The notes beneath the pieces are model-generated. The model ran no database searches, had not been told where the DNA came from, and saw only the letters and a list, made by a program, of their open reading frames with translations. Below are positions 1-9,200 of a stretch of 60,837 nucleotides of DNA, in pieces; the first letter of the stretch is position 1, and every line of letters starts with the position of its first letter. This DNA comes from Vezdaea acicularis (taxonomy: Eukaryota): contig JAPEUI010000097.1 in NCBI GenBank assembly GCA_026025075.1, forward strand, positions 1 through 60,837. Direction: 5' to 3'. The translations under genes were made by a program, and so were the position numbers.

Positions 1-3000
1 GAGTTCTGCGTGGACACTGGCTCCGCGTTGTCCCTAATAGATGAAAAAGCGTTAGAGACGCATTATCCGTCATTAAAAGTACACGTCATCCCTAATCATA
101 AAAGCATCCAAATATCGGGCATAGGTAAAGGCCCAATAACTAATCGTTATGTCATGTTACCCCTGTCCTTGCCCACAACTAGTAGCCGTCACCTTGACAT
201 ACTAGGGGAAGTCCATATCGTAGAAACCCTGACGTGCCAGCTCCTTATAGGAAACAACGTCCTTCGCCCTAATAGGATTGAAATTAACTGGGGCAAAGAC
301 GGCATGTCTGACTATCTTCGCATCGGTGACACCCTTGTGCCCCTCAACGTGAGACAGGAGAACGCCATCCCTAGACGGATGCCCGTTTTTGCCTCTGTAG
401 GATACTACCTGGCCCCGGGGACAGGCCAGGCGGTCAGCACCATGACCAAGCACCCTCCACCCAGGGATGAGGACGGGTTCCTGTTCGAGCCGAAAAACGT
501 AATGGATTTGGGCACGCAGTCTTGCCTTGCTAGCCCAAATGCCCTATTACTCTACGCTACGCAACCCTTACCTGTCAGTAATTTCGGCTTGACCGGACAG
601 AAAATAGTAAAAGGGCAGCTCTTGGGATACGTGTGTCCGTATAGGGATAAGGAAAAACCCGCTTCCAGCGTCATGGTCAATATGACGCAGGTGTTGTCCC
701 ACCCCCTAAAGGGCGATCCTCGAGAGATGCCTCCCCCTCAGGCGGGACAACCCGAACCCACTATCGACAATCGACAGATGGGGCAGATCAAAACGGATGA
801 CCTTCCCTACCTGATACACTACCCCGCCGAGGGCGCCACGAAAGCCGACATTTCCCCCCACTGGGGCACAGAATATAACGCTCGCGTTAACAGGATAATC
901 GACAACCATGCTCGCCTTTTCCGCCCCAGCCTGGGCATGTTCAACGATGGCGTAACCATGCCAATTCCGTTCCGTGACCCCAAGGACATAGGGGGCTTGA
1001 AGCAGGCGCCGTATGGGTTATCCCGAAAAGACAAGGAAGCTATGGACGGTATCCTGGATCCGTTGCTCAAGGACGGCCGAATCGTTAAGGTCCCCCTGGG
1101 CGCCCCTTCTGCCGCCGCATCACCGGCCTTTGTAGTATGGAAAGGTGAGAAACCACGGGTAGTGGTCGACCTCCGTAAGGTCAACACGAAATTATACCCG
1201 GACGCATACCCCTTGCCCAAGCAAGACCAGATCTTGGGAGCTCTGGGTGGCTCTATCGTGTTCTCGAGCATGGACGTCACAAAGGGGTTCTTCCAGCAAC
1301 CCATTGACCCCGTTGACCAATGGAAAACGGCCTTCGTGACCCCGCATAGGGGGCATGAACAGCTAACCGTGTCAACAATGGGGCTGGCTAACTCTCCTGG
1401 GTTCTTCCAGCACCGGATGGAAGCCTTGTTTGGACGGTTCCTCTGGCAGTTTGTCCTAGTATACGTCGACGATATCATCGTCTTTTCACGCTCACTGGAC
1501 GATCACTTGCGCCAATTAGACCAGGTGCTCAGCTTGCTGGAGGCGTCAGGGGTCACCCTGGCGCTGTCCAAATGTCACTTCGCCTACCCCACCCTCGTGG
1601 CGCTAGGGCATCACGTCTCCAGGCTTGGTCTGAGCACTGTCCAAGAAAAGACGGACGCCATCAGGCAACTGGCGTATCCCACAAACCTACGACAGCTCGA
1701 AATCGGTCTAGGTTTCTTTGGATACTACCGAAAGTTTGTACCAGGTTACTCAGACATCGCGCAACCTCTCCTCCAGCTTAAAACAATAGGGTTCAAGGGG
1801 GGCCCAACAAAGGGGAAGGCGCGGCAGAACTACGCGGACAAGCGCTCCGAGGAAAAAGGAGCATTTGACTTTGATATCAAGTGCCAGGCAGCCTGGGACA
1901 AGCTGAAGGATCGACTCTGCAACGCCCCGACGTTAGCCTTCCCCGACTTCACTAAAGGCTTCATCCTATACTGCGACGGTAGCAAGGAAAGAGGTTATGG
2001 AGCCGCCCTTCACCAAATCGGCCCAGACAAGGTGGAGCGCCCAATCCTCTTTTTGTCCAAACAGCTTAATGCGCCAGAGCGAAACTATTGGGCAACAGAA
2101 CTCGAAGTAGGCGCCCTGGTATGGGCTCTCAAGAAGCTCCAAGCATACGTTGACGGTAACGAACTGACCGTGTACACGGATCATGCAGCAATACAGGGCA
2201 TCTTCCAATCAGATGGGCAGGGTAAGAGAAGCAACCGTTTGAACAATTGGGCTTTATTCCTGTCCAAATACAGGGGTCAAATGACCATAATACATCGCGC
2301 AGGGAAGGTTCATAGGAACGCGGACGGGCTGTCCAGGTTGCCCGTATCCACATTCACCACGAGCGTCCTGCATATAGACGACCAGTTGAGGAGGGCGATA
2401 ACCAGTAACTTGGCAAAAGACAAGCACCTCAAAGCAATCTACCACGCGATAAAAGAACAGGTCAAAGCTACGGGGTCACATGCAGACGGACCAAGCACGA
2501 CGAGGGAGACATTCCGCTACGATAAGGATACCGGGCTACTGTACTTTATTGACCATGACAGACATGAACGCCTCTGCATCCCTGAGAAAGCGCAGGCTCT
2601 CATCCTCACGTGGGCACACGACAACCGGGCTCATCCAGGGGCAAATCGGACTTATGACTTCCTCCGACAAAATGTTTATATGCCCCGAATGAAACGGACA
2701 ATCGCCCGTTACGTTCAGGGATGCCCAGCTTGTGCGGTCAGCAAACCAACAAGGCATCCCCCATACGGCGACCTCCATCCCATCCAATCCCCTCCAGTGC
2801 CATTTGCTGTGCAAACCATGGACTTCGTGGGTAGCTTACCACAGTCCTCCAAAGAAAGTACGGCGATCCTCACCGTAACGGACAAGTTCAGCAAGGCTAT
2901 AAAGCTGGTGCCGGGACGGGATACGTTTACCGTCGTCGAATGGGCGGAGGCGTACTTCCGCCTCGTCTATAAGGACTGGGGCGCCCCCCAGGTCATAATA

Positions 3001-3864
3001 TCTGACCGGGACGCGAAGTTCACCAGCTACTTCTGGAAGGCGTTATTCAAGAGAGCTAACACACGTCTAGCCATGACAACAGCTTACCACCCCGCTGCGG
3101 ACGGTCAGTCTGAGAGGACGAATCAAACGGTGGAAATTGCCTTGCGCTGCTTGCTCGCCGGACTAGAGTCAAAGTCAGCATGGGAGGACATTCTGCCTGA
3201 TGTGGAATTTAGCATCAATACCTCCACAAACGTTTCCACAGGATCAACACCATTCGAGTTACTCTATGGGGTTGAAGCCAGGACAGCGTTCTCCCCTCCC
3301 ACAAACATCAATGTCGGGGCCGACTCTTTTGTAGAGGACAGGATACAACGGCGACAGGACGCGGCAGACGCGGTACAAATGGCACAAGCCCGTATAAAGA
3401 TATACTTCGATTTGAAGCACTCCCCTATCACTCTGTCTGGCTCCGTGTACCTTTGCCTGGCAACAGGCATAAAGAAAGGCTATAGGTTGGCCGGAGCGGG
3501 CAAACTGTCCCCAGTAAAGATGAGGCCGTTCTGTATCAAAAGCAAGGTAGGACGCCTAGCCTACGAGATTGAATTGCCACCGGAACTCCAGGACATCCAT
3601 CCAGTCATCTCGGTGACACACCTGGAACAAGCGCCCGACAAGTCGTTGACGCAGGGCAGGAAGCTGCCACCCCCGGGTCCTCTCCTGGTGGACGGCCAGG
3701 AGGAATGGGTTGTCGAACGGATATTGGGCCAAGAGAGACGAGGACGAAAGGACTTCTATAAGATCAAGTGGGAAGGATACGACGGCACAACCTGGGAGCC
3801 CGCAGAGAACATAGCAGCAGACGTCCCTCAGCTGGTCCAGAAGTTCAAAAGGACACAGCGTTAG
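1..3864 (+). CDS. pol: Retrotransposon Pol polyprotein (aspartic protease, RT, RNase H, integrase, chromodomain); frame open from base 1
   Basis: VDTGSA protease motif; RT motifs SMDVTKGFFQ, MGLANSPG and YVDD; RNase H motifs YCDGS, ATELE and YTDH; integrase HHCC (AHDNRAH...CPAC) and D-D-E (MDFV, SDRD, GQSERTNQ); C-terminal chromodomain EEWVVERIL...YKIKWEGY..TWEP. Confidence 0.97.
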   Translation, partial: EFCVDTGSALSLIDEKALETHYPSLKVHVIPNHKSIQISGIGKGPITNRYVMLPLSLPTTSSRHLDILGEVHIVETLTCQLLIGNNVLRPNRIEINWGKDGMSDYLRIGDTLVPLNVRQENAIPRRMPVFASVGYYLAPGTGQAVSTMTKHPPPRDEDGFLFEPKNVMDLGTQSCLASPNALLLYATQPLPVSNFGLTGQKIVKGQLLGYVCPYRDKEKPASSVMVNMTQVLSHPLKGDPREMPPPQAGQPEPTIDNRQMGQIKTDDLPYLIHYPAEGATKADISPHWGTEYNARVNRIIDNHARLFRPSLGMFNDGVTMPIPFRDPKDIGGLKQAPYGLSRKDKEAMDGILDPLLKDGRIVKVPLGAPSAAASPAFVVWKGEKPRVVVDLRKVNTKLYPDAYPLPKQDQILGALGGSIVFSSMDVTKGFFQQPIDPVDQWKTAFVTPHRGHEQLTVSTMGLANSPGFFQHRMEALFGRFLWQFVLVYVDDIIVFSRSLDDHLRQLDQVLSLLEASGVTLALSKCHFAYPTLVALGHHVSRLGLSTVQEKTDAIRQLAYPTNLRQLEIGLGFFGYYRKFVPGYSDIAQPLLQLKTIGFKGGPTKGKARQNYADKRSEEKGAFDFDIKCQAAWDKLKDRLCNAPTLAFPDFTKGFILYCDGSKERGYGAALHQIGPDKVERPILFLSKQLNAPERNYWATELEVGALVWALKKLQAYVDGNELTVYTDHAAIQGIFQSDGQGKRSNRLNNWALFLSKYRGQMTIIHRAGKVHRNADGLSRLPVSTFTTSVLHIDDQLRRAITSNLAKDKHLKAIYHAIKEQVKATGSHADGPSTTRETFRYDKDTGLLYFIDHDRHERLCIPEKAQALILTWAHDNRAHPGANRTYDFLRQNVYMPRMKRTIARYVQGCPACAVSKPTRHPPYGDLHPIQSPPVPFAVQTMDFVGSLPQSSKESTAILTVTDKFSKAIKLVPGRDTFTVVEWAEAYFRLVYKDWGAPQVIISDRDAKFTSYFWKALFKRANTRLAMTTAYHPAADGQSERTNQTVEIALRCLLAGLESKSAWEDILPDVEFSINTSTNVSTGSTPFELLYGVEARTAFSPPTNINVGADSFVEDRIQRRQDAADAVQMAQARIKIYFDLKHSPITLSGSVYLCLATGIKKGYRLAGAGKLSPVKMRPFCIKSKVGRLAYEIELPPELQDIHPVISVTHLEQAPDKSLTQGRKLPPPGPLLVDGQEEWVVERILGQERRGRKDFYKIKWEGYDGTTWEPAENIAADVPQLVQKFKRTQR

Positions 3865-4167
3865 CTGTGTCGTATTCCCCAAGAAATACTCGAAAGGGGC
3901 TACTATCTTGAGATAGTTACCCCTATATTGATATCGCTTACGAATTCGCTTATTTTAGATAGTTAATTTAACTTGCGCTGAGCTGTAGCTCGCTTCACCT
4001 CACCTCACCTTTCGTTGCTACACCTCATCTATCCTTCATTCTTACACCACCTCACCCTTCAACAAGGTGATCCTCTTGACCTCTATAGCACTACCGCGGG
4101 GCTTGCCCCTTCGTAATAAACATACCGTTTAACATACCGTTTTATCACCTCAGCCTGTCCGGTTACG

Positions 4168-5862
4168 ATGGCCCCCGGTGCAATGGCTTCGTTGCATACA
4201 AACGTCCCGCCAGTCAAGTGGACCAAATATGACTTTAAGCCCGTCCAAAGAGCTTGGCCTCCTGCCTGGAAAGATCGTCACATTGAGGGCGCAATCTACG
4301 CAACTTTTGGTCTATTCTCTAGCCCTTCCGACCGTGAGATGGCTAGGAAACTTTTCGCGATCGAAAACGACCCAAACGACTGGCCTTGTCGTGCGATTAG
4401 ACGCGGCTGGAATATCAAAAAGCAGCCAGAGTTTGACGACAACATCGTTGAGCTCTTCAAGGAGACATTTCCCACCTGCGATAAGACTGATGGTCAGATC
4501 GGTAGAGCACTGAAACAAGACATCCTGATCAAGAATAAGATCCTCGTACAGGCTCTCAAGGAAGACGGCATCGAGACCAAGCTTCAATACCGATTGTCCT
4601 GGGAACACGAAGCTACATTGGTACGATACCCCATCTTCAACGAAGCAGAAGAAGGGACAGGAGCATATGACGATCCTCTCGCAACGGTACCCGAGTTTGG
4701 CAATTGGGCAGACGCATTGAATGTGACAAAAGTCAAGCACCAGCGCGAGATGATGTCCGCCATGGCTCTAGGATCACCTTCACCATCCGAGACACCCAAC
4801 AGCATAGGTCGATCAGAAGAAGAGTACAATAACACGGTATCGGACAAGATAGCTTGCGCAGATGCAAACGTGGCTATTCAAAGCGTTGAACCCATCCTGT
4901 CACCAGTACAATCAACCATGGCGCCACCTGGTCAGATCAGACGGTCCACAACGCATCAGCCAGTATCTTCTGCCATTCGCTCCATGTCCATAACGTCATC
5001 AAAGTCATCGTCCTCGAGCTCAAGCGGGTCTGAGATGATAAACGCCGTTGTAACGGAAGCCCGAGAGGAAACAAGGGAACCAGATACATATGTGAAGCCA
5101 GACAGATTGTCCGTACCGCGCACAAGACCGTTGGCTGCGACATCACCATCTCCCGCGCCGACAGCTACGCCGTCCAAGCCCATCGAGCACGTGTCCACTG
5201 CTCTCACCCAGGTCTCAACTACGGGACGCACCGCTAGGGCAGGAACCAACCCTCTCTGGACCCCGGGCGCTCAATTCCCCGCTGGAACATGGCAACCTAC
5301 TGACGGACACGGCGATAAAAACGGTACCAACTGGCTTCTGTATGACCCGAGAGGCCCCTTGCCTATACTAGACTCGCGAGGATACTCGGCGGACAACAGG
5401 AGACTGATGACCTTCCCGGTGTACGTTAACCTGAGCGACAGAGCTACGGGACATGTCATCATGTCGATGGTATCCTACCGGATGAAACTTAAGTATTGGC
5501 CAAATAACTTCCGAAAGGACGCTCGGCTGGCCAGGAACTATGTATCAAGAGGGGCAGGATTTTTCTTCGTGGACGGACGAGTCGGGGCGGTGGACACCAT
5601 CAAGCTGCTAGGTGCTGATTTTCATGGCAAAATCCCAAAACACTACAACCTGCCGATTGGAAGCGCCCAGTCGAATGATCAGCTGCAGGACCTTCCCTCC
5701 GATGACCTTGCAGTGGCAGACTGTTTTCTTCCCGGCTCGGCATCCAACATAGACGGGACACAACCATCTGTTGGACCAGGACGATATGCCGTGCCTAACT
5801 TTTGTCGTCGCCGTCACCCCCCCGGCTCCAGGACAAAAGGATGCAAGCATCCGGATAAATAA
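4168..5862 (+). CDS. Extra ORF (ORF3, 564 aa) inside the retroelement, function unknown
   Basis: Long ATG-initiated ORF between the pol stop and the PPT. Two globular-looking regions separated by an S/T/P-rich linker. No obvious signal peptide or TM helix. Confidence 0.7.
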   Translation: MAPGAMASLHTNVPPVKWTKYDFKPVQRAWPPAWKDRHIEGAIYATFGLFSSPSDREMARKLFAIENDPNDWPCRAIRRGWNIKKQPEFDDNIVELFKETFPTCDKTDGQIGRALKQDILIKNKILVQALKEDGIETKLQYRLSWEHEATLVRYPIFNEAEEGTGAYDDPLATVPEFGNWADALNVTKVKHQREMMSAMALGSPSPSETPNSIGRSEEEYNNTVSDKIACADANVAIQSVEPILSPVQSTMAPPGQIRRSTTHQPVSSAIRSMSITSSKSSSSSSSGSEMINAVVTEAREETREPDTYVKPDRLSVPRTRPLAATSPSPAPTATPSKPIEHVSTALTQVSTTGRTARAGTNPLWTPGAQFPAGTWQPTDGHGDKNGTNWLLYDPRGPLPILDSRGYSADNRRLMTFPVYVNLSDRATGHVIMSMVSYRMKLKYWPNNFRKDARLARNYVSRGAGFFFVDGRVGAVDTIKLLGADFHGKIPKHYNLPIGSAQSNDQLQDLPSDDLAVADCFLPGSASNIDGTQPSVGPGRYAVPNFCRRRHPPGSRTKGCKHPDK

Positions 5863-5947
5863 GCCAGCAGCGTCCCGTCAGTCAACAGATACAACGCGTT
5901 CAACGGTATTCCCTAGTCAGCGTCGTTTGCCACCTCTATAGTCAGAG

Positions 5948-6505
5948 GTGCAGTCAGTGGAAAGCCAACCAATAGAACGCCCGAATACCGCCACGCGTGT
6001 ACCAGCAAAGAAACGTGTGACATCAACGACAACGGCAGCGACAAGTGGACGACAGGCTTCATCTCCTCCTAAAGGCAGTTCATTGCGTCTGAGCAAGGTG
6101 TCAAAAAAAGCGCTGTTTGAGGAGTCAAAAGCTATCAGAGAAGAAGTACGAACTCATATGGCACGTCTGGAAGAGCTTAACCGTCAGTTGGAATCGGATA
6201 CAGCTCCGCTGAGTGCTCAAGAGCAACAGCGTCAGCGTGAACCTGCCCCTGCTCCGTCCTCTTCACCCCCTCAGCGTGTCCTGCCACAGACGATCAGCTT
6301 CCAACCAATCAACGAGCCCGGCCCGTCTGTACGCCCTGATCATAGACGTTCCTCGACTCAGACGTTCGATAGCATCAATGCACGTTCCCCCAGTATGGCC
6401 ACAGGTCGCGACAATCGGCAGGAGGACAATAGAGAAGAGGAAGCAGCGTCGCCAACCGATGACCTCTACGCTAACTCTCCAAGGCCATCCCCTCCGAGAG
6501 GTTAA
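5948..6505 (+). CDS. Extra ORF (ORF4, 185 aa, low complexity with coiled coil); possibly the broken C-terminus of ORF3
   Basis: Coiled-coil-like LFEESKAIREEVRTHMARLEELNRQLE; stop ~50 bp before the PPT. The frame is also open from 5753 to 5938, upstream of a single TAG at 5939-5941. Confidence 0.45.
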   Translation: MQSVESQPIERPNTATRVPAKKRVTSTTTAATSGRQASSPPKGSSLRLSKVSKKALFEESKAIREEVRTHMARLEELNRQLESDTAPLSAQEQQRQREPAPAPSSSPPQRVLPQTISFQPINEPGPSVRPDHRRSSTQTFDSINARSPSMATGRDNRQEDNREEEAASPTDDLYANSPRPSPPRG

Positions 6506-6571
6506 CTCCGCCATTACACTTCAACTCTGCTACAGGATATCGGGACGATATCTTTTCGGGAGGGGGCAATC

Positions 6572-6858
6572 TGTTGTGGGACAGCGGGATAGGGGCAGGA
6601 GCAGGAGCAGGTACGCTATATACTAACAGACGCAGCTTCTTTATAGCGCCTGCCCATAGGGGCAGCGCTATAAGGCATGCGACTGCCCTACAACGGACAG
6701 CGCTTACCGCGCTGTCCTGACCGGGCAGTCGTGACCGGGCACGTGATGGCCCATATATATAGCGTATCCTCCTAGATAGAAACAAGGCAATTCTTTCATC
6801 ATAAAACTGTACCAGGACGCCTTGTCCTTGCAGTGTCTGGACACCCCGTGCCCTGACA
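6572..6858 (+). repeat. Putative 3' LTR (~287 bp)
   Basis: Starts TG just after the PPT and ends CA; imperfect terminal inverted repeat (TGTTGTGGGAC vs GTGCCCTGACA); TATA-like ATATATA at ~6753-6761; CATAAA at ~6800; internal stem-loops. Confidence 0.55.
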
Positions 6859-6859
6859 A

Positions 6860-9200
6860 TGCCACAGCGCATGCAGGCTTGTCTAAAGGCAAAAGAAGGT
6901 CATATTTACAAATAATAGTGTAAGACGTCGCAGTGGCCTTCTCAATGGCCTGCCAGCGGAGCTATGGCAGGCTAAGCAAGATGAGCGCCGCTTAAAGCCT
7001 AGTTCAAGAGCAGCGCGGGTTGAATCCATTACCTATATATGCCGATGGCGCTACTCCGATGGCTCGTCATCAAATTGTTTCTTACTATATGCTATAGCTA
7101 GATCCTACGAGATTTTAATATATCTATATGACTTCATTGTCTATATATCGCCTCATTTAATCAGGCGATTGCTATTATATCCGCAGCATATCATTATATC
7201 TAGCTATTGTAGCCCGTGTACGCTCCACTAAACGTACGCCCCCTTGCCGCAGGCAGGACGCAGATGTCGTACGCCTGTCACGCTTTCAGAAAAAAGGCAG
7301 AGCTTGTGCCCACTCTTATAAGTAGCAAGGCAGGCATTTAGACTATTTATATTCCTAATTCTAAGCTATAGCAATGCGTAGTAGTGCCATAATATCAAAT
7401 TGAAATTGTCGCCTTCAATTGTTGCAAAACAATCGTTTTGAAACTTTTTCTCTCTTTATGTACAGTACAGTAATGAAATGTTGTAAAATAGACATGTCTA
7501 TTATATTTAATTTCAAAAAAATGCCTTCTCTAATTCTTCTTTTATTGTCATTGTAGAAATTACTGCGTTTTTCTTATAGATTGAGTATAAGAACGCTGTG
7601 GCATCTTTTTAAAGCGCACTGACTCGCCTTAGACAGCTGTTCTTGCTTAAACGCCGGTGGCGCTTAGGAGATGCTTAATCAGCTTGCTCCTCATATATTT
7701 ATCAAGTCAGTTCCGCTAGGGACGCGGCATCAAATAATCTTGAATCATAGCTAGTTCTTGAAATCTATTTATATAATCGCAATCTGTTCATTATATCACT
7801 ATATCTTTATATCCATATAATCCAGTGATACCGTTAGCTATTGCCGGCGGCCCGCCTACCTCTATAGCCTATTCAACATGCAGTAGCATTGCAGGCGGAC
7901 CGCAGATGGCGCCCAGCCTACCACGCTCTCAAAATCAGAAGCAGTTATTATGCTCATTCTTACATTGAGCATATTTATGATATTAATAATAAGTTAATAT
8001 TTTCAATATTTATGAATGAACTTTATATTATATACTTAATATTTAAAAATATATTTCACCAGCAGAACTACTACATCCAACAGTCAAAATTTTATTCTAT
8101 CAGACAAAAAATATTATATCTGTAACATAATTGTCACTAAATGATATAAAATTATAATTTTTCAATCTTCAATTATTAATTGATATTTAGAAATTTTAGA
8201 ATAAGAAAATTTAAGACATCAATATATTTAAAAATACAAAATGTATCTAATCAGAGTTAAAACTTACAAACTATGTCATAATATATAAGCAAAATATTTG
8301 CACATTAAATGTCCACAAAATTTAATACATGTGATTAATTAATAGAAAACTTTTTTTTTCAAATTTTTTGCATATTATTTTTTATTATATGTTTTTATTT
8401 TACATCAACTACATTGCAAATATACAATCTATATTGTTTTACAAAGATCAAGTTTAATTAATGTTGAAGGATACAATAACTAAACTTGAATTATGAAAAA
8501 ATTAGAATTTAAACATGCTAAAAATATATATATATACATATACGTGATAAAAAAAACTCAATGTATTATTTTCATTATTATTACACATACAATTGATAGC
8601 TAAGACAAAATCTTGTGCATAGTAATTTTTGCTTCTAGGATATATTATTTGGTCTTTGGTGGTTATAATTATTTAATGAATTTGTAATTTTGAAATATTA
8701 TTTATCAATTTTAATTATCCTAAGAAATATATATATATATATAATGTATTTTTCAACCAAATATAATTAATAATAAAAATGTTCAGTTTCAAAAATTCTA
8801 TATGATTTGAAACCTTAGAAATCTTTTTGGCCTTGCTCAAAATTTTATTTTTTGATGGAAATTTTGAAATTTTGAGAATTTTCAAAATCCTGCCCAAGAG
8901 CTTTGAAAAAAAACTTGAAATTTGTGAAGATTTTTATGAATACAAATTTTCAGCACCTGCTTCCATCAAGGTGAGATGGCTTATTTGGCATTCCTGCCCA
9001 AAATCCCTGAAATTTTGTCTTCTTTTGTTTGGAGGTGTTTAAATCAACAGGTTGAAATTCCGTTTGAAAACCCATCTCAACGCGAATTTTTAAATGTGGT
9101 CTAAATACCACTAATGCATGAAGGAAATAATTGCATATTCATAAACAATAATATGCTTAGGATGTTCATGATAAGTTGAGTATCTGACGCAGATCATTAC
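6860..9200. other. Degraded repeat-like DNA: TpA-rich tract followed by a very AT-rich island (~7930-9180)
   Basis: Abrupt compositional shift relative to both the retroelement and the gene block; no credible ORFs; many TA runs; CpG nearly absent in 7930-9050. Confidence 0.7.

Follow-up and report, generated by a model that had tools for sequence, protein, structure and literature searches.

A broken orphan gene between chromovirus pol and a candidate 3' long terminal repeat in Vezdaea acicularis

The stretch of DNA analysed here, which we call the window, is the 60,837-nt contig JAPEUI010000097.1 of Vezdaea acicularis, a lichen fungus (assembly GCA_026025075.1, forward strand). It opens inside the pol gene of a Ty3/Gypsy retrotransposon, and our subject is the interval that follows pol (3865-6571) together with the candidate long terminal repeat (LTR) behind it. 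An original prediction, made from the sequence alone, had described this interval as cargo that a chromodomain element carries between pol and its 3' LTR. The coordinates on which it was built were confirmed: pol stops at 3864, two sense open reading frames (ORFs) follow (ORF3, 4168..5862, 564 aa; ORF4, 5948..6505, 185 aa), and behind them come a tract resembling a polypurine tract (PPT) and, at 6572, TGTTG, the start of the LTR candidate (Table 1). Our preferred reading is that 3865-6571 is the 3' internal region of a chromovirus-type LTR retrotransposon, in which a single extra gene of about 770 aa, in sense orientation, lies between pol and the PPT and 3' LTR. To this statement as a whole, leaving aside any specific function, we assign a probability of about 0.58; taken by itself, the claim that the extra gene is internal to the element seems likely.

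Table 1. Features at the left end of the window, with the evidence for each
Feature	Position	Strand	Evidence
pol of Ty3/Gypsy chromovirus (protease region, reverse transcriptase, RNase H, integrase, SH3-like, chromodomain)	1..3864	+	Open frame, Pfam
Non-coding spacer, 303 nt	3865..4167	+	Stops in all 3 of 3 frames (sequence, three-frame translation)
Extra gene, first part (ORF3 up to the frameshift)	4168..5799	+	ORF, homologues, alignments, per-segment identities
T4 run with one extra T; +1 frameshift, with which ORF3 ends early at 5862	5800..5803	+	Contig comparison
Frame-2 coding linker, joining both ORFs in intact relatives	5801..5938	+	Translation; P0002 residues 545-577 and P0005 match the frame
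In-frame TAG; Q at the equivalent position in P0005	5939..5941	+	Translation, alignment
Extra gene, second part (ORF4): basic stretch, conserved motif with short predicted helix, P/S-rich region, acidic tail	5942..6505	+	ORF; fused in P0010 and P0005
Polypurine tract candidate GGGAGGGGG	6558..6566	+	Sequence; role inferred from position only
3' LTR candidate, 287 nt, TG...CA, with TATATATA at ~6757-6766	6572..6858	+	Sequence, contig depth, loose ends

The pol frame runs for 1287 aa without a stop, with its terminating codon at 3862-3864, and matches the Pfam profiles RVT_1 (residues 383-538), RT_RNaseH (649-757), Integrase_H2C2 (860-916), rve (934-1031), SH3_Tf2-1 and Chromo (PF00385, residues 1236-1284; E = 4.9e-10, score 39.6 against a cut-off of 25.1). 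Judged by this order of reverse transcriptase (RT), RNase H and integrase that has a chromodomain at its C-terminus, the predicted product is that of a Ty3/Gypsy chromovirus. The 5' end of pol is lost at the contig end, and gag and the 5' LTR lie beyond the window, which itself holds no further copy of pol, the extra gene or the LTR. Among the matches listed from a search of 5.8 billion proteins, the closest pol relative (P0013) is 84.9% identical over 1287 aa, rising to 92% in the RT and 87.5% in the integrase, and the runner-up is 53% identical. The TpA/ApT ratio, an index of repeat-induced point mutation (RIP), is 0.88 over pol and 0.61 over the extra gene; these values are in the unmutated range and have no bearing on RIP avoidance. 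Several pol relatives at 35-44% identity (P0041, P0050, P0068 and others) have long low-complexity extensions past the chromodomain or inserts within the integrase, and many pol relatives lie on contigs of 8-13 kb, a length above the usual for gypsy elements of fungi. The element in the window is probably about 9 kb in length.

The two ORFs behind pol are joined in relatives. P0010, which is 44% identical to the window gene overall (538 aa), is a single uninterrupted ORF of 768 aa that spans both parts, and P0005 (86% identical to the window gene) reads through their junction. For comparison with further copies, Logan contigs of four moss-metagenome runs (X1-X4) were placed on positions 1-8000, the best run sharing 0.52 of sampled words. 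One nucleotide is missing at 5800, where the window reads T4, in all six of the contigs from these runs that cover the site. Without the extra T, frame 1 passes into frame 2 and the translation resembles P0002 and P0005 as far as the TAG at 5939-5941. As judged from these alignments, ORF3 and ORF4 are the two parts of one ancestral gene, and what the original prediction had left as cargo "ORF(s)" becomes one broken gene. The window copy reads as carrying a +1 frameshift and a nonsense codon, so that the full protein would no longer be made from it; the frameshift may alternatively stem from an assembly error in the T run.

A public gene model of this locus (P0001, 728 aa, a hypothetical protein of the V. 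acicularis metagenome-assembled genome, MAG) joins the two ORFs through a 151-nt intron at 5791-5941. The donor of this intron (GTGCCT) is weak, its acceptor is the AG of the TAG at 5939-5941, and the intron is absent from the relatives; it is best seen as an annotation patch laid over the frameshift and stop. The linker itself varies in length among copies: 199 nt within 5850-6050 are missing from a contig in X1 and from another in X3, and P0005 is without about 17 residues of the start of ORF4.

The make-up that had been read in ORF3, namely a Trp-containing N-terminal region, a Ser/Thr/Pro (S/T/P) linker and a second region, is borne out by composition and alignments. A helical, Trp-containing N domain (residues ~20-200) is followed by the S/T/P-rich linker (~201-365) and then by a beta-rich, hydrophobic and strongly conserved C domain (~366-525), in which blocks such as FPVYV, YWP and GAG..F.DGRV are invariant; the fraction of S, T, P, G, Q and N over ORF3 residues 201-400 is 0.48-0.56. 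Past the C domain, another linker leads to a short motif that is basic and helical, which is followed by a P/S-rich stretch and then an acidic tail. The window gene matches P0002 at 95.6% identity in the N domain, 81.2% in the linker and 91.9% in the C domain, and the corresponding values for the more distant P0010 are 51.9%, 30.9% and 60.6%. Within ORF4, identity to P0010 reaches 64.7% in the motif region and is 38.2% when ORF4 is taken as a whole. The domains are conserved well above the linkers, which argues for purifying selection on a real protein. Nor are the ORFs mere chance frames, as both the frame and the domain-wise conservation are retained in homologues at 35-88% identity. Coding capacity is kept across diverged copies (768 aa in P0010, 634 aa in P0007), and truncated forms occur in the family as well (P0008 and P0011, 240 aa; P0012, 164 aa).

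A HMMER search of 1.84 billion representative proteins returned 7 relatives, with none detected outside one genus. With the members of their 90% clusters included, the family comprises about a dozen sequences, all of them from V. acicularis or from ENA/Logan metagenome contigs. Two alignment scans of JGI metagenome contigs and one of IMG/VR gave pattern matches to family loci, none of which was confirmed by tblastn. Taken together, the alignments describe a very small orphan family with two conserved domains joined by fast-changing low-complexity linkers.

No known domain accounts for the protein. Pfam (E up to 1) returned nothing for ORF3 and only a sub-threshold match to DUF4554 for ORF4 (E = 0.32), and an Imm74 match in one of ten family members (E = 0.011) was taken as chance. 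A profile search of the PDB gave 0 matches at E up to 10, the ESM Atlas gave no usable match for the C domain or for P0010, and AlphaFold2 models were too poor for fold comparison (mean pLDDT 30.8 for the C domain from 8 sequences and 38.9 for the N domain from 9 sequences). An env-like protein was ruled out, in agreement with what had been predicted: there is no transmembrane (TM) helix or signal peptide and no env Pfam match, and the highest 19-residue Kyte-Doolittle mean is 1.02 in ORF3 and 0.99-1.07 in P0001, P0010 and P0007. A gag or capsid protein was ruled out as well, with no Pfam match to gag or to a CCHC knuckle and an hhalign probability of 0.1% when alignments A2, A3 and A4 were compared with the gag regions of 9 related gag-pol proteins (the element's own gag being outside the window). 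In these comparisons, the extra gene showed no signature of a transposase, an RT or any other enzyme, nor one of gag.

We next consider the physical linkage of this gene to pol. Of the 991 contig pieces, 32 were listed; some of these, at 94-96% identity, reach across 3558-3887 (X4, record 24), 3680-4128 (X1, record 3), 3983-4257 (X4, record 25) and 4175-4522, and a piece covering 6256-6598 at 98% identity runs from the extra gene into the LTR candidate. Judged by these bridging pieces, the order pol, spacer, gene and repeat is kept in diverged copies. Summed contig depth in X1 is 25.8-54.1 over 1-3738 and a comparable 18.7-38.9 over 4006-6408 (means of 36.6 over 14 pol bins and 28.2 over 9 gene bins; depth is not copy number), and it does not increase over the spacer. 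An LTR beginning near 3900, which would place the gene outside the element, was looked for and rejected: there is no excess depth at that point and no repeat partner in the window. Single positions in X1 are covered by 4-7 contigs in the extra gene and by 2-4 in pol; the extra gene is multi-variant within a sample, like pol. In addition, P0013 and P0010, the closest relative of pol and a relative of the gene, each lie on a single contig of 9431 nt, most simply one and the same contig holding a near full-length element.

At the 3' end, 66 nt separate the end of the ORF at 6505 from TGTTG, and CAATC (6567-6571) separates the purine tract GGGAGGGGG from it. The LTR candidate finishes in ...GACA at 6858. 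Summed depth in X1, 18.7-38.9 up to 6408, stands at 120.9-216.6 over 6409-6942, and across the summed contigs depth over the LTR candidate rises 4- to 7-fold. Directly behind 6858, loose ends occur in 5, 4, 5 and 5 contigs of X1-X4, respectively, with flank agreement of 0.51-0.57; because their flanks are discordant, the repeat must terminate at 6858 in many different contexts. The same boundary is seen in P0002, whose tail is the translated reverse complement of 6707-6859, joined at the equivalent of ~5899, such that an inverted LTR abuts exactly at 6858/6859. P0002 (an 88% identical gene on an ENA contig of 2107 nt) would represent either an LTR element inserted into another copy's gene or an assembly join at the repeat. 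With the terminus at 6858, the bridging contigs, the depth and the 9431-nt pair, the predicted placement of cargo between pol and a 3' LTR is supported.

Several observations weigh against our reading. Pol is intact over 1287 aa but the extra gene behind it is broken, so this gene is perhaps dispensable in cis or decaying. The purine tract falls 5 nt short of the repeat and does not abut it, and the 287-nt repeat is unproven as the LTR of this pol, the 5' LTR, primer-binding site, gag and target-site duplication being outside the window. The 9431-nt coincidence is circumstantial, a single study supplied all of runs X1-X4, and copy number is poorly reflected by contig depth. Three paralogues (M1824_002356, M1824_001077 and M1824_001509) lie on contigs of 405, 40 and 34 kb, respectively, in the same assembly, and some or all of them may be ordinary host genes. 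No annotated pol from a named Vezdaea was found among the matches listed (120 of 738 for near-length pol and 120 of 506 for shorter pol). Differences between copies fall in the third codon position in 7 of 8 cases in pol and in 5 of 10 in the gene (best-supported differences listed, 18 of 1344), counts that fit weaker constraint on the gene as well as they fit conflict. Finally, the functional part of the reading is argued by analogy.

The main alternative to an accessory factor is a functionless passenger, that is, a transduced host gene or a de novo gene that lies inside the element, is useless to it and is decaying. The occasional capture of ORFs downstream of pol has been described (PMC6431247, PMC7264820), and the paralogues on large contigs might be the host source. 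The frameshift and stop beside an intact pol and the truncated forms P0008, P0011 and P0012 would also suit a passenger, although a broken gene beside an intact pol shows only that the window copy lost the full protein. We nevertheless think a passenger rather unlikely: by one account (PMC7264820), transduced ORFs are present in a single copy or a few, whereas here several variants per sample are found at pol-like depth, and lineages at 35-50% identity retain long frames (P0010, P0007) in which the domains are conserved above the linkers.

It is less probable still that the gene is a neighbouring host gene, a member of a fast-evolving lineage-specific family that happens to sit beside a 3'-truncated chromovirus, with 6572-6858 an unrelated solo LTR. 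The contigs at 94-96% identity hold pol, spacer and gene contiguously, the gene occurs in 4-7 variants per sample at a depth like that of pol, its relative and the closest pol relative are both on a contig of 9431 nt, and the purine tract sits just before the repeat. These observations speak against a host neighbour, but such a gene would fit the public annotation, which treats the locus as an ordinary gene, and the four annotated paralogues at 35-52% identity, which resemble a gene family; the position of the 5' LTR outside the window, the gap between PPT and repeat, and the nest of other repeats downstream point the same way. Least probable is that the gene belongs to another mobile element inserted between pol and LTR, or that two repeats were misassembled: the contig does start inside a repeat and comes from a MAG, and the P0002 contig would show LTR copies inserting into this gene, but the junctions of pol with spacer and of spacer with gene recur in independent Logan contigs, signatures of a transposase, RT or gag are absent from the gene, and the termini of a nested element were sought in 3700-7400 without finding a direct or inverted repeat pair able to bound one (the longest is 22 nt at 82%; the window has no repeats of at least 40 nt besides a tandem array at its far end).

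If the gene is indeed an additional gene of the chromovirus, it would need its own mRNA, because every frame is closed by stops between pol and the gene. A subgenomic RNA made by splicing could serve, or else transcription could start at an internal promoter within the 303-nt spacer, and expression of either kind would be comparable to that of the env and accessory genes of retroviruses. By eye, the spacer contains TATA-like strings and, shortly before the ATG, a pyrimidine tract with AG behind it (~4141-4153), which are candidate promoter and splice-acceptor signals. The product might be a soluble, non-enzymatic modular adaptor, acting in trans either on the cycle of the element itself or on its control by the host. 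If the pairing of P0013 with P0010 is right, divergence has been far quicker in the gene (44% identity) than in pol (85%), which would be a signature of host interaction. A host-interaction factor, regulatory or counter-silencing, rather than a structural one is the function that we favour, tentatively and at a probability well short of even. In its most specific form, the proposal would be of a Vezdaea chromovirus clade whose accessory gene was born within the lineage and evolves at several times the rate of pol; its product, in the manner of the accessory proteins of complex retroviruses, is made from a subgenomic RNA, and either is directed against fungal transposon control (silencing or heterochromatin) or steers integration together with the chromodomain. 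This fuller version is speculative and, as a whole, unlikely. Were it true, no earlier sense non-env accessory factor engaged in an arms race with the host would have been described from an LTR retrotransposon of fungi, a priority that holds within the literature searched.

Among better-known elements, Athila and the errantiviruses belong to lineages other than the chromoviruses, and the accessory proteins of complex retroviruses are small or disordered and made from spliced RNAs. A class of additional ORFs that lie in either orientation between pol and the 3' LTR has been described in plants and insects (PMC7264820), and the capture of ORFs downstream of pol has been noted in several groups (PMC6431247, PMC5408684). 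For fungal LTR elements, gag and pol are given as the usual content (PMC3248453); in Botrytis cinerea, brtn of Boty-like (BcGypsy1) elements has been reported, and further additional ORFs are predicted in other LTR elements (PMC8365987). In the open-access main texts searched, we found no description of a sense non-env ORF in a fungal chromovirus. The claim that the interval was the best candidate in the window for an undescribed system is too strong, as a class of sense ORFs in this position, behind pol and ahead of the 3' LTR, is already described (PMC7264820, PMC6431247). What we see is probably a known kind of additional ORF carrying a new orphan protein.

The closest formal parallel is the class aORF-3S of plant and insect Ty3/Gypsy elements, represented by the env-like ORFs of Athila/Calypso and gypsy (PMC7264820): these too lie after pol and before the PPT and 3' LTR, in sense orientation, as separate ORFs that need their own mRNA, and the window gene may, as in that class, be a multi-copy one. 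In contrast to the env-like members, the window protein has no signal peptide, TM helix or env features, its host is a fungus, and it has no detectable relatives outside one genus. With brtn of Botrytis (PMC8365987) it shares the status of an additional gene of unknown function in a fungal Ty3/Gypsy element; brtn is antisense according to the title of the paper cited there (Zhao et al. 2011), whereas the window gene is on the pol strand, and the two are set apart here by orientation. LTR elements of bdelloid rotifers (PMC5408684, PMC6431247) likewise carry ORFs past pol in lieu of env that can differ between related elements, but several of those have recognisable domains (GDSL esterase/lipase, DEDDy exonuclease; PMC6431247) and the window protein has none. 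The accessory genes of complex retroviruses (tat, rev, bel; PMC7264820) resemble the working model for the window gene in lying 3' of pol and in being non-enzymatic and fast-evolving, a comparison of mode of action only that implies no homology. If the gene proves conserved and borne by the element, it would add a fungal case to the retroelements moving toward retrovirus-like complexity, and would offer a handle on how such elements meet fungal genome defence. The window gene figures in public annotation, as do its paralogues, as a hypothetical protein of the ordinary kind; orphan "genes" like these in MAGs of lichen fungi may be transposon cargo.

Beyond the LTR candidate, the window continues into other, more abundant repeated DNA at 6859-7476 (depth 125-238 in X1). 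A second terminus with discordant flanks lies at ~7318 (6 contigs in X3), 6889-7325 or 6903-7343 is missing from contigs, and joints lead from 7310-7318 back into 6734-7134. The interval looks like a solo LTR-like insert of ~440 nt inside another repeat, a nest of insertions. It is followed at 8001-9000 by a very AT-rich block (GC 0.18-0.23; TpA/ApT 0.81, not clearly RIP-like) that separates the repeat nest from the gene-bearing remainder. Some 20 ATG-to-stop ORFs of 190-690 aa on both strands occupy 9973-59857, suggesting ordinary gene-dense host DNA. The right contig end carries a tandem array at 60702-60813 with an 18-nt unit in 5 copies that are 83-100% alike, including CCTCCATGCTATGCAGAG.

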